10,103 nt of DNA from a virus: the UHGV virus genome UHGV-0293072; one strand, 5' to 3'. Positions 5,055 to 10,103 of this stretch are shown one piece after another. Position numbers and translations under genes: made by a program. Each line of letters opens with the position of its first letter. Position 1 is the stretch's first letter. The notes beneath the pieces are model-generated. The model was not told where the DNA came from and searched no databases. It was given only the letters and a program-made list of their open reading frames with translations.

Positions 5055-5528
5055 ATGAGTGGCCCTAGTTTCAGTATCAGCGGCAAGCCGGTGACGGTGA
5101 CGCCAACAGCGATCACCAACGGCGTGGCGTTCTGGCCCGATCTTGATCTGGCCGAGTTTCAGAAGGTGCGCACGTTGCCCGCTGACCTGCCGCCAGAAAC
5201 GGCAGGCGTGGCCCTGCTGGCCGCCATTGCGGAGGTAAACGACGCGCTGGCCGACGTGGTGACGTACTGGAACGCGAAAGCCTACGAACGGGCCGCAGAT
5301 GTACCGGGTGCAAAGATGGGCGACGAAACCCAATTAAAAGCCCAGTAAAAAAAAGCGGTCTACGCCCGCGCAAAGGCCGATTTACTGGGGGAATTCGCCA
5401 CCATCGGGCGACGTGAATCGCATCCGGGGCAGGAAAGCCAGGACACCCGCGCCAGCCTGCTGGCCGAGGCGGCCAATGTGATGCGAAACATGCTGCGACA
5501 ACCACGCGTTGGGGTGCATCTGATATGA
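5055..5528 (+). pseudogene. Head completion/stabilisation protein (P2 GpL-like) interrupted by an in-frame TAA at 5346-5348
   Basis: ATG 5055 with GAGG 7 nt upstream. The frame is open 5055-5345, hits TAA at 5346-5348, then the same frame stays open for 59 more sense codons (KKAVYARAKADLLGEFATIGRRESHPGQ...RVGVHLI) to TGA 5526-5528, which overlaps the ATG of the next gene. Combined length would be 157 aa, in the size range of GpL. Confidence 0.65.
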
Positions 5529-6693: not shown

Positions 6694-7146
6694 AAATGAC
6701 CTGGCCTACAGTCAACGTCAGTCAGAAAAACCGCTTCAACGGCACAACGAACGACGTCGAGCGCGTCATCCTCTTTGTGGGTTACGGCGACACTAACATC
6801 GGGAAAACCCAGTCGCTGAATACCGGCAGCGATCTGGATAAAGCCCTGGGCGACAAAGACAGCCCGTTAAAAAATATGGTGGCCGCTGCGGCCAATAACG
6901 CCGGACAGAACTGGTTTGCTTACGTGCATGTGCTGGCAGAGCCAGACAAGGGAGCCGAGGGCTACAAACCAGACGAAGACTGGATGAACGCAGTCAAACA
7001 GGCCCAGAGCGTGGCATCCGTGGAAGGGGTTGTCCTGGCATTTGATACCGCCGCCGCGGCCACCATTAACCGCGCAACGGAAATGCGCGTCACCTTACAG
7101 GCCAGTTTTGGGCGTTTTATCTGGTTTGCCCTTGCTGTGGGTGGGC

Positions 7147-7190
7147 CCGAAAAAGACGAAGTCATAATCGTGATACCACATCGGCACGCT
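7147..7190. repeat. Left junction repeats: A (7147-7161, ccgaaaaagacgaag) followed by B (7162-7190, tcataatcgtgataccacatcggcacgct)
   Basis: Exact reverse complements are present at 7454-7468 (A') and 7469-7497 (B'); verified base by base. Confidence 0.9.
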
Positions 7191-7468
7191 GTAGCGGCTT
7201 GCCTGCAAAGACTGCAACACAGCCAGATCAATTTCTGCGCCCGTCCCGTCCACCGGCAGGCCGTCGCGCCCCAGCGCGGTGACTGCACCGGTTGCGACGC
7301 GGGCGGGGCTGTCTGCCACCGTCACCGAACGGTTACACAGGCGACCAACCAGGACGCCGGGTTCGTTACCCCACAGGCGCGGGACCAGTTGCACCCCAGG
7401 CGAGGCAATACCGGCCTGGAGTTCAGCCAGGCGCGTCACATAGTCGCTCCATGCTTCGTCTTTTTCGG
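7162..7468 (-). other. Inverted internal block of the sheath-like gene (coding sense on minus strand)
   Basis: The minus strand reads SEKDE-AWSDYVTRLAELQAGIASPGVQLVPRLWGNEPGVLVGRLCNRSVTVADSPARVATGAVTALGRDGLPVDGTGAEIDLAVLQSLQASRY-SVPMWYHDYD, sharing EKDE with the plus-strand N-terminal fragment and SVPMWYHDYD with the plus-strand C-terminal fragment. Confidence 0.75.
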
Positions 7469-7497
7469 AGCGTGCCGATGTGGTATCACGATTATGA
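7454..7497. repeat. Right junction repeats: A' (7454-7468, cttcgtctttttcgg) followed by B' (7469-7497, agcgtgccgatgtggtatcacgattatga)
   Basis: Reverse complements of A and B at the left junction. The order on the right is A'-B', not B'-A' as a simple 44-bp inverted repeat would give. Confidence 0.9.
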
Positions 7498-7885
7498 CGG
7501 CATCTACTGGGCTGACGGTCGCACCCTGGACGTTGAAGGCGGTGATTATCAGGTGATTGAAAACGTGCGCGTGGTTGATAAAGCCTCCCGCCGCGTCCGT
7601 CTGCGTGCAATCCCTAAAATTGCCGATCGTTCGCTGAACAGTACACCGGGCAGCATTGCCGCGCATGAAACCTATTTCGGCAAGCCGCTGCGTGAAATGG
7701 CGATTTCAACCCAGATCAATGGTGTCGAATTTCCGGGCGAAGTGAAGCCACCAAAAGACGGCGATATCACCATCACCTGGACCAGTAGCGAAGCGGTACA
7801 GATTTACCTTGTGGTTCGACCGTATGAGAGCGCGAAAGAAATCGGCGTCAGCATCGAACTGGACACCTCACTGGAGAGCTAACCA

Positions 7886-8657: not shown

Positions 8658-8982
8658 AAAACAGCAACTTTTCACGGTGATGATCGCCAACCTGATTCAT
8701 TTTGCCGAAGACAAGGGCTATCGCCTGACGTTTGGCGAAGCGTACCGCACACCAGAGCAGGCCGCGATCAACGCAAAAAAAGGGAGTGGCATTGCTAACA
8801 GCCTGCATACCCAGCGCCTGGCCGTGGACTTTAACCTGTTTGTTAACGGCGAATACCAGACCGACAGCGCCGCTTATCGCCCGCTGGGTGAATACTGGGA
8901 ATCCATCGGTGGATCATGGGGTGGCCGTTTCAGTAAGCCGGACGGCAACCATTTCAGTCTTGAGCATAACGGGGTGAGCTGA
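8644..8982 (+). CDS. Endolysin, peptidase M15 family (zinc-dependent cell-wall peptidase)
   Basis: 112 aa with an H-x6-D motif (SLHTQRLAVD) and a second His (GNHFSLEH), consistent with M15 zinc ligands. GGGGGAG Shine-Dalgarno upstream; start overlaps the holin 3' end. Confidence 0.75.
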   Translation: MKLSEKQQLFTVMIANLIHFAEDKGYRLTFGEAYRTPEQAAINAKKGSGIANSLHTQRLAVDFNLFVNGEYQTDSAAYRPLGEYWESIGGSWGGRFSKPDGNHFSLEHNGVS

Positions 8983-9365
8983 TGCGAAATGTGCTGGGTC
9001 TTTTGTTGATTCTGGCCGCTGCTATGTGGGCGGGCTGGCAGGCGCATGACTGGCACGACGCAAAGCTGAAACTCGCTGCCAGCGAAGCGGCAGAACAAAC
9101 GCGCCAGATTGTCGTTGAGGTGACGCGGCAGTCTGGTGAAGCGCTGGAAGCAAAACTCGCGGGGCTTAAAGCCAATGAAATTCATACGGAACGGGTTATC
9201 CGCACGGAAACCATTAAGCCGGTTTTTAGCAACGTTTGTGCTTCTGATGATTACGTCCGGCTGTTCAACGAAAGTGCAGATCAAGCCGAGCGAGAATTAT
9301 CAGGAAAACCAGATGACACTTTGCCCGGTAAGACCACCACGTCTGGCCGGACCGACAGGAAATGA
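8982..9365 (+). CDS. i-spanin (Rz-like)
   Basis: 127 aa with an N-terminal transmembrane anchor (LGLLLILAAAMWAGW) followed by a charged, helical periplasmic domain. ATG overlaps the endolysin stop (TGATG). Contains an embedded +1-frame lipoprotein ORF. Confidence 0.7.
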   Translation: MRNVLGLLLILAAAMWAGWQAHDWHDAKLKLAASEAAEQTRQIVVEVTRQSGEALEAKLAGLKANEIHTERVIRTETIKPVFSNVCASDDYVRLFNESADQAERELSGKPDDTLPGKTTTSGRTDRK

Positions 9366-9471
9366 TTTTGACGCGGCGCTGACAGCCTACCGGCAGATGT
9401 ATACCGACTGCGCCGCCCGACATAACGCCCTAGTGGGCATCATTCGACAACGTAAGGAATTAACACAATGA
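9175..9471 (+). CDS. o-spanin (Rz1-like outer-membrane lipoprotein), embedded in and extending beyond the i-spanin gene
   Basis: +1-frame ORF inside Rz. Signal peptide with lipobox-like TSGC (Cys at 9262-9264), Pro-rich mature part with additional Cys. Start is ambiguous: ATG 9175, or GTG 9136 with GAGGTGA upstream. Its stop TGA 9469-9471 overlaps the next ATG. Confidence 0.6.
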   Translation: MKFIRNGLSARKPLSRFLATFVLLMITSGCSTKVQIKPSENYQENQMTLCPVRPPRLAGPTGNDFDAALTAYRQMYTDCAARHNALVGIIRQRKELTQ

Positions 9472-9737
9472 GTAAACCGAACAAAATCACCATGACCGTG
9501 GCGGGTGTCAATCTGAGCTTTGAGCCGAATAAAACCGCGTTCAATAACCTGATTAACGAAATGACCATGACCAATAAGATTGCGCCAATGGCGACGTATC
9601 TGGGGCGTATCGTTGATGCCGACTGTAAAGAGGCACTTAGCAAGCTGATGGAAGATTATCCGGGTTGCGAAATGCAGATCGTTGAAAAGGTTAACGAGAT
9701 TTACTCCCCCAAACTTGAGATCGAAGTAAAAAACTGA
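9468..9737 (+). CDS. Putative tail assembly chaperone (G-like) with a 3'-terminal -1 slippery site
   Basis: 89-aa ORF with AAGGA Shine-Dalgarno. It ends ...GTA AAA AAC TGA with heptamer A_AAA_AAC in the zero frame, and the -1 frame is open from there to the window end. Position ahead of the presumed tape-measure region fits the conserved chaperone frameshift arrangement. Confidence 0.5.
   Translation: MSKPNKITMTVAGVNLSFEPNKTAFNNLINEMTMTNKIAPMATYLGRIVDADCKEALSKLMEDYPGCEMQIVEKVNEIYSPKLEIEVKN
9728..9734 (+). promoter_or_regulatory. Candidate -1 programmed ribosomal frameshift heptamer A_AAA_AAC
   Basis: Canonical X_XXY_YYZ slippery pattern in the correct phase, 1 nt before the zero-frame stop. 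No downstream pseudoknot or stem-loop was evaluated. Confidence 0.45.
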
Positions 9738-10103
9738 CGGCGCGGGTAGCGGCCATTCGCACGAATGCCCTGGAGCAATACCTTGCCTTGAGCGCGTCCT
9801 CTGCTACGCCTTTGGAACCCACTTCTGCAAGTGCGGCGTTCATCTCATACGCCGGACCCACCACGCCCGCGATGGACTGCGCCACGCCCCAGACAGCCGC
9901 CGCACCGATCCCGATTTTTGTAAAAGACGCCTGCGATTTTTCAGCAAAGCCGGACAACGAAGATGCGATGAAAGGTGCAATGGCGGGCCTGTCCGATATG
10001 GACCTGCCCCGCGTCACCATCGCGGCCAATACCCTGGCGGCAGGCGTCAAGGCCAGCGGCGAAGAGGCAGGCGAATACATCGGTGCGATGGCGTCACGTT
10101 TCA
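9728..10103 (+). CDS. -1 frame extension of the chaperone (GT-like fusion) and/or 5' part of the next tail gene; truncated by the window end
   Basis: The -1 frame has no stop from 9719 to 10103 (over 125 codons). High-quality codon usage from about 9968 (MKGAMAGLSDMDLPRVTIAANTLAAGVKASGEEAGEYIGAMASRF). No good Shine-Dalgarno before the in-frame ATGs at 9872 or 9968, favouring access by frameshifting. Confidence 0.4.

Follow-up and report, generated by a model that had tools for sequence, protein, structure and literature searches.

An inversion with interleaved flanking duplications in the tail sheath gene of an Irrigatiovirus-like phage contig: a mutational scar of known type, with at least two others in the contig, and not a genetic switch

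The stretch of DNA analysed here, 10,103 nt of the virus genome UHGV-0293072 (hereafter the window), is, judged from its genes and relatives, the late-gene region of an Irrigatiovirus-like, P2/HP1-like temperate phage of Enterobacteriaceae. Gene identities were assigned from the open reading frames by comparison with annotated relatives. The genes run in the order terminase large subunit (minus strand), scaffold, P2-family capsid, terminase small subunit, gpL, gpR and gpS, followed by the sheath (DUF2586), tube, holin, M15 endolysin, a spanin-like gene, the tail chaperone and the start of the tape-measure gene. The window shared 96-97% identity with Salmonella phage SI7 (Peduoviridae, Irrigatiovirus) and 93-94% with the prophages of 18 complete E. 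coli genomes, and its close protein relatives came from Salmonella, Enterobacter, Citrobacter and E. coli. An exact-protein look-up led to two contigs that carry an intact sheath gene of 380 aa, L003 (Logan SRR11412904_3608; L013 is the same contig) and ERR13331322_133 (L008/L014). L003 was 98.3-100% identical to the window in each colinear or inverted block, and the ORFs of the window matched its late-region genes one-to-one. The product of its intact sheath gene carries PF10758 (DUF2586), and in NC_049460 its homologue bears the annotation tail sheath.

The sheath gene is 1143 bp long in SI7, in the E. coli prophages and in other close relatives, and the same span in the window, 6696-7882, is 1187 bp, a gain of 44 bp. 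The parts of this span are as follows:

6696-7161, plus strand: 5' part of the sheath gene (X and A; codons 1-155), in frame, identical to and colinear with L003 8855-9320
7147-7161, plus strand: A, in its ancestral place and orientation, ending at the left junction 7161/7162
7161: G at the left sheath junction, for which either parent is a possible source (1-nt overlap)
7162-7190, minus strand: B, an extra inverted copy of B' (29 bp), which starts the flipped block and is the reverse complement of L003 9584-9612
7191-7453, minus strand: M, 263 bp in the middle of the flipped block, which match L003 9321-9583 in reverse complement at 100% identity
7454-7468, minus strand: A', an inverted 15-bp copy of A, which ends the flipped block at the right junction 7468/7469 (0-nt overlap)
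7469-7882, plus strand: B' (7469-7497, in its ancestral place and orientation) and Z, together the 3' part of the sheath gene, identical to L003 9584-9997

We found that the exact reverse complement of A (CCGAAAAAGACGAAG, 7147-7161) stands at 7454-7468 (A', 15 bp) and that of B (TCATAATCGTGATACCACATCGGCACGCT, 7162-7190) at 7469-7497 (B', 29 bp), just as the original prediction had described them. The B pair reaches 30 nt through positions 7161 and 7498, which is the 1-nt overlap of the left junction. A second copy of the A or the B pattern appeared in none of 200 dinucleotide-preserving shuffles of the window. The order of the repeats, A-B ... A'-B', is interleaved, whereas an ordinary inverted repeat is nested (A-B ... 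B'-A').

L003 has one copy each of A (9306-9320) and B' (9584-9612) and no reverse-complement copy of either, and window positions 7162-7468 are the reverse complement of L003 9306-9612 at 100% identity. When 6696-7161 was joined to the reverse complement of 7191-7453 and this in turn to 7469-7882, the result was the L003 sheath gene (8855-9997) at 1143 of 1143 bases. At the level of the sequence, this comparison shows an ancestor of the form X-A-m-B'-Z and a present form X-A-[rc(A-m-B')]-B'-Z, equivalent to a change made in one step, and the rebuilt gene bears out the ancestor and the net gain of 44 bp that had been deduced from the window by itself. The inverted stretch A-m-B' measures about 307-308 bp and corresponds to nt 452-758 of the sheath gene, the minus strand of M holding nt 467-729. 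A and B' were also single copy in all 52 relatives examined, a comparison that had been proposed together with the original prediction, and the sheath inversion junction of the window was absent from 14 of the 14 relative loci checked. As it now stands, the sheath ORF specifies 286 aa up to a stop at 7556, namely residues 1-155 of the sheath and then 131 residues read out of frame, while its 3' part (B' and Z) is severed from the gene start. To judge from this reading frame, the sheath gene in the window is dead, that is, a pseudogene.

Two further in-place inversions were found in the window, one in the portal gene (1-141) and the other in the tape-measure region (9791-9963). They are listed here with the other features that set the window apart from L003:

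1-141, minus strand: portal-gene inversion, the reverse complement of L003 1952-2092; the junction 141/142 joins L003 2301 with a 0-nt overlap
5338 and 5348 (5338-5348), plus strand: pair of C>A changes in gpL, found only in the window among 12 relatives compared
9791-9963, minus strand: tail-chaperone/tape-measure-start inversion, the reverse complement of L003 12108-12280 (173 nt)
9963-10103, plus strand: terminal 141-mer, the first 141-mer common to the rearranged and the colinear paths, that is, a branch node in a k=141 graph

The left junction of the portal inversion lies beyond the edge of the window, and positions 1-141 are at the same time the terminal 141-mer of that end. The tape-measure inversion has no flanking duplications; instead, about 202 nt were lost on one side (L003 11906-12107) and about 77 nt on the other (12281-12357), and the tape-measure start went with them. 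Its junctions overlap by 0 nt (9790/9791) and 1 nt (9963/9964), and the event belongs to the class known as type 1-3-2-4 or delINVdel. In the head-completion gene gpL (5055-5528), the C>A change at 5348 converts codon 98 from TAC to the stop TAA. At both changed positions in gpL a C was turned into the next base in an A-rich context, and the changes would be of dislocation type; a search for a nearby template for this pair or for other variants returned only chance 10-11-mers. The differences at bases 141 and 9790 adjoin junctions, and junction placement accounts for both. We also considered a cluster of new mutations at the left tape-measure junction (9769-9805) and rejected it, as four of the five differences belong to a natural allele patch that is also present in the E. 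coli prophage L002; with the L002 allele, this junction is clean at 9790/9791. An apparently equal gap of 205 nt at the portal and tape-measure events was not upheld by the exact junction coordinates.

Relatives were scanned for inversions with L003 as the reference, and comprised 41 sequences from IMG/VR (about 463 kb aligned) and 11 others, 52 in all and about 650 kb in total. No block inverted with respect to L003 was found in either set, and recurrent small inversions as a trait of the phage family were rejected on this result. At the 95% upper bound of the background rate derived from the relatives, the probability of at least three inversions in 10.1 kb is about 2e-5. The clustering of three inversions in 10.1 kb, compared with none in about 650 kb of relatives, indicates that they share a cause, which would be either one episode or a process specific to the sample. 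The same clustering is the basis on which we suggest that a single episode probably made all three. In searches of larger collections, the left sheath junction 29-mer had no match in IMG/VR, the GTDB representative genomes or the JGI metagenomes, and the out-of-frame sheath tail gave no hits among 5.8 billion proteins. Exact look-up of the truncated sheath (286 aa) and truncated gpL (97 aa) products found neither on record. Both terminal 141-mers were without a match in IMG/VR, as was a 41-mer in the JGI metagenomes and GTDB representatives. One relative, L048, begins 3 nt from the left breakpoint and was tried as a second instance of the same event; it is colinear and only 83% identical, and it probably breaks off at a variable patch.

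The overlaps at the five visible junctions are 1, 0, 0, 1 and 0 nt, with 2 nt or more at none of them, which is the chance expectation (probability 0.43). The five visible jumps measure 292, 278, about 375, 250 and 349 nt. In the sheath event the return point precedes the first landing point by 29 nt, in the tape-measure event it follows it by 77 nt, and the flipped blocks differ in length (about 307-308 nt in the sheath gene vs 173 nt in the tape-measure region). The large segments (7 kb and 2.3 kb) retain their order and orientation. No pre-existing inverted repeats were found in L003 at the sheath breakpoints; weak inverted pairs in L003 touch the tape-measure point 12108 and the portal point 2300, are not the sites used, and are within chance. 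By inspection only, the junction sequences had no restriction-site-like pattern of the kind that a Hi-C or restriction-ligation origin would leave.

Both ends of the window lie exactly 141 nt past a junction (junctions at 141 and 9963; 10103 - 9963 + 1 = 141), and the window is probably a unitig of a k=141 de Bruijn graph that ended at branch nodes. This k is an assembly setting in wide use and the default largest k of MEGAHIT. In such a unitig an assembler misjoin at repeats of 15-30 nt would be impossible, since the junction 141-mers must come from reads. We infer that, at the portal-side, sheath and tape-measure junctions, the sample either lacked the colinear adjacencies or had them pruned, and that the adjacencies L003 1951/1952 and 12357/12358 were present in it. 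The presence of these two adjacencies would imply either inverted duplications of at least 141 nt, with a larger event of like kind at the portal, or a second subpopulation.

The product of the sheath event is the same as that of type 3-1-4-2 in the four-point template-switch model (Loytynoja & Goldman 2017, PMC5453318), in which an inverted spacer comes to lie between two new inverted repeats. The four points fall in the order 3<1<4<2 (9306 < 9320 < 9584 < 9612) with repeats of 15 and 29 nt, the flipped block reads exactly as one unbroken ancestral stretch in reverse complement, and the repeats are absent from the ancestor, as in the class termed dupINVdup. One four-point event of this type covers every difference between the sheath gene and its ancestor (1143/1143 bases after reversal). 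The tape-measure event matches type 1-3-2-4, which does no more than flip a piece of sequence and is the commonest type (PMC5453318). [quoted passage not shown] In human genomes, dupINVdup and delINVdel have been ascribed either to MMBIR/FoSTeS or to the repair of a number of breaks made at the same time (Collins et al. 2017, PMC5338099). The window resembles the human dupINVdup and delINVdel rearrangements in carrying duplications (sheath) or deletions (tape-measure) at both inversion breakpoints, but those are of kb-Mb scale, and the events here are of 0.3 kb, in a bacterial virus, and three in 10 kb. The template switches at quasipalindromes of E. coli (Ripley; Dutra & Lovett, summarised in PMC5453318) are likewise bacterial and involve opposite-strand copying and spacer inversion; their mechanism requires a prior near-perfect inverted repeat, however, and there is none at the breakpoints of the window.

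Our proposal, to which we give an even chance of being right, is that the sheath inversion arose in vivo when DNA synthesis switched to the opposite strand, copied it and returned (switch-and-return copying). In L003 coordinates, the nascent strand would have quit its template just past A, at 9320, and synthesis would have restarted on the opposite strand about 290 nt further on, at 9612. Backward copying would then have continued for 307 nt, ending 15 nt beyond the exit point, at 9306, and the strand would have re-entered the first template at 9584, 29 nt short of the first landing point. The portal and tape-measure inversions would probably stem from the same episode, the shorter excursion of 173 nt in the tape-measure region leading to losses and not to duplications.

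Other origins of an inverted segment have to be weighed against this proposal. A reversible site-specific switch (Gin/Hin/Cin-like or driven by a tyrosine recombinase), or homologous recombination between inverted repeats, would account for the bare fact of an inverted segment flanked by inverted repeats, and the sheath inversion shares with the Gin/Hin/Cin segments of Mu, P1 and Salmonella that it is short and, in the window, lies in a phage late region. The Gin/Hin/Cin systems are conservative and reversible, with nested sites, an adjacent invertase and both orientations functional. Neither conservation, nested sites, an invertase nor two functional orientations hold for the sheath inversion. 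Its repeats are products of the event, being single copy in the ancestor-like L003, which carries no inverted repeats at the breakpoints, and their geometry is interleaved, not nested. The change added 44 bp, and recombination at either repeat pair would leave the 44-bp insertion in place and the frame unrestored. No recombinase family occurs among the precomputed Pfam families of the 20-kb late-region products of L003 and relatives, and the event destroyed an essential structural gene, the sheath being frameshifted after codon 155. A switch of this kind has next to no chance of being the explanation, and the original prediction was right to set aside the Gin/Hin type. That prediction had also kept a chimeric assembly of a mixed-orientation population in reserve, and branch nodes at the contig ends would indeed imply an alternative adjacency at the portal and tape-measure ends. 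However, at 15 and 30 nt, A and B fall well below k-1 = 140, and a k=141 unitig would not be joined at repeats of 15-30 nt. For a transposon-mediated inversion, one would look for an element at the breakpoints; none of the junctions holds insertion-sequence or other foreign DNA, the window aligns to L003 down to the last base, and the duplications are unequal (15 vs 29 nt) and not of fixed length. Both an assembler-made chimera and a transposon thus make a very improbable source.

Staggered double-strand breaks, the cause favoured by the original prediction, would have placed nicks on opposite strands 15 and 29 nt apart, after which the 5' overhangs were filled, the segment flipped and the ends rejoined bluntly. 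This course of events predicts the exact sheath product seen, the overlaps at the junctions (1 and 0 nt in the sheath gene, 0-1 nt at the other three) fit fill-in and blunt ligation, and resection could account for the tape-measure losses. That much of the prediction stood, but the arrangement that it took for a signature of staggered breaks is non-diagnostic, as a 3-1-4-2 template switch gives the same product. Moreover, three flips in 10 kb would require at least six breaks and six blunt joins with the large segments left unmoved, no nuclease is known to give staggers of 15 nt and 29 nt at two sites of one event, and no common motif (nickase, terminase or HUH-type site) was found at the ten breakpoints. 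If the contig ends are inverted duplications of at least 141 nt, staggers of that length would not separate unaided. The hosts of the family are Enterobacteriaceae, which to our knowledge are without Ku/LigD end joining and join ends only rarely. The Drosophila inversions explained by staggered breaks are of megabase size, with duplications of 0.1 to several kb and with NHEJ present, whereas the inversion in the window is about 308 bp, its duplications are 15 and 29 bp, and its hosts to present knowledge lack NHEJ. Staggered breaks are the accepted cause of inverted duplications at inversion breakpoints in Drosophila (D. subobscura O4/O8, PMC5080602), and the sheath event shares with that model the derived-only duplications at both breakpoints, the single copy in the ancestral state and blunt-compatible junctions (1 and 0 nt). 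The presence of two more inversions, one with losses, makes the staggered-break label less likely, because one switching episode is simpler than at least six ordered breaks, and we regard this origin as improbable. An in-vitro artefact is an unlikely source as well, although one with a real share of the probability; here a strand-displacing polymerase would have switched strands in whole-genome amplification, or another library chimera would have formed, and come to dominate the reads of a low-abundance genome. MDA chimeras are local and inverted in 85% of cases (Lasken & Stockwell 2007, PMC1855051), and their jump lengths, with a mode at 250-300 nt (Tu et al. 2015, PMC4595205), are near the 250-375 nt of the window. 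Several switch-and-return events on one long product would give clustering, and an artefact is in keeping with the lack of a similar event in the 52 relatives and with junctions that are unique across the collections searched. However, complementarity of 2 nt or more is expected in 93.5% of inverted MDA joins under 10 kb (PMC1855051) and was found at 0 of 5 junctions in the window, an outcome with a probability of about 1e-6 under that expectation vs 0.43 by chance, so that the overlaps of 0-1 nt are strong evidence against phi29 amplification chimeras. Chimeras made by MDA are a minority of the molecules, whereas the structure of the window is an assembled consensus, and the colinear adjacencies would have to be missing or pruned at about six positions, which is hard while the original template is still being copied. 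The unique C>A pair in gpL would be unexpected from a high-fidelity polymerase, but these changes may be unrelated natural variants.

Switch-and-return copying and breakage-and-joining would leave the same sequence product, and the arguments that separate them are indirect. Strand switching is supported by the fact that one mechanism yields both outcomes, duplication in the sheath gene and loss in the tape-measure region. Serial switching also predicts that segment order is kept, which random rejoining of at least six breaks does not, and the similar jump sizes, together with a return close to the landing point despite unequal block lengths, point the same way. Hosts among the Enterobacteriaceae, without Ku/LigD to present knowledge, favour strand switching too. 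It is weakened by the 0-1-nt overlaps, as annealing-primed switching usually shows 2 nt or more and microhomology is the stated hallmark of MMBIR/FoSTeS-type events (PMC5338099), and by excursions of 170-310 nt, compared with the tens of bases typical for published short template switches. Weighing these points, we infer, as the most likely reading, a replicative mechanism and an origin in the cell rather than in the tube. More tentatively, and less probably than not, one aberrant replication episode in an enterobacterial cell may have produced, by jumps of about 250-375 nt and without microhomology, at least three switch-and-return inversions across at least 10 kb of the prophage, and perhaps the C>A pair in gpL.

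Taken together, the sheath feature belongs to a known class of mutational scar, of which the contig has at least three examples, and is no genetic switch. Two lessons extend to other contigs, namely that interleaved inverted repeats (A-B ... A'-B') signal a mutational scar and not a switch, and that an exact k-length spacing of contig ends from junctions shows how a contig was constructed. If the structure was made during preparation, the finding is ordinary. If it was made in a cell, it would be a rare base-resolution record of a complex, homology-free rearrangement of inversion type in a bacterial virus, and the question of replicative vs break-and-join origins could be tested in a tractable system. 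Duplication-flanked and deletion-flanked inversions, classes characterised so far mainly in human and Drosophila genomes, stand here side by side, with an essentially identical intact ancestor at hand for comparison. Should the single-episode reading be true, the window would hold a bacterial counterpart of chromoanasynthesis, in which jump length reports the single-stranded zone at an uncoupled fork, and would point to a homology-independent route of strand switching that is undescribed for an E. coli-type replisome.

Besides the sheath inversion, we identified two further segments of the window that had been inverted in place when compared with L003, a near-identical relative that carries an intact sheath gene (Logan contig SRR11412904_3608):

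1-141, minus strand: second inversion, in the portal gene; reverse complement of L003 1952-2092.
9791-9963, minus strand: third inversion, at the tail chaperone and the start of the tape-measure region; reverse complement of L003 12108-12280.

The portal inversion was joined bluntly onto L003 2301 at 141|142, while its left junction falls beyond the window edge. The tape-measure inversion was bordered by losses of about 202 and about 77 nt, without duplications. Across its left junction, the window differed from L003 at four positions (9769, 9772, 9796 and 9805), and all four bases were the allele of the E. coli prophage L002. New mutations at these sites were rejected on the basis of this agreement, and the shared alleles mark 9769-9805 as a short patch of natural recombination that lies across the junction.

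In a comparison with 12 relatives, two substitutions in the head-completion gene gpL (5055-5528) were specific to the window. Both were C>A changes, at 5338 and 5348, 10 nt apart, and in each the new base matched the A that follows the mutated C; the change at 5348 created a TAA stop at codon 98.

Lesions and contig ends were also observed among the relatives. The 8.1-kb contig IMGVR_UViG_2529292966_000001 (positions 1-145) opened with 38 nt from the 5′ part of the sheath gene (L003 9014-9052), after which it jumped to L003 9498. The sheath gene thereby appears to have lost 445 bp, with an overlap of about 9 nt at the join; this is either a microhomology-type lesion unlike those of the window or a contig-end artefact. 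Another IMG/VR contig, IMGVR_UViG_3300011843_000003 (positions 1-60), was colinear with the window at 83% identity, and its first base corresponded to L003 9318, 3 nt off the sheath left breakpoint and inside a patch variable among relatives; this start probably reflects coincidence or a strain-variation break. In Logan contig ERR10789605_8079 (7684-8160), the tail gene gpR was broken by a Trp-to-stop change into products of 56 and 85 aa, which is ordinary point-mutation decay, unlike the inversions of the window.

Finally, each window end (1-141 and 9963-10103) extended exactly 141 nt past a rearrangement junction. Such exact ends probably mean that the window is one complete unitig of a de Bruijn graph built with k=141, terminating at branch nodes. 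Because a unitig stops at such nodes, the source sample would hold alternative adjacencies at both window ends.
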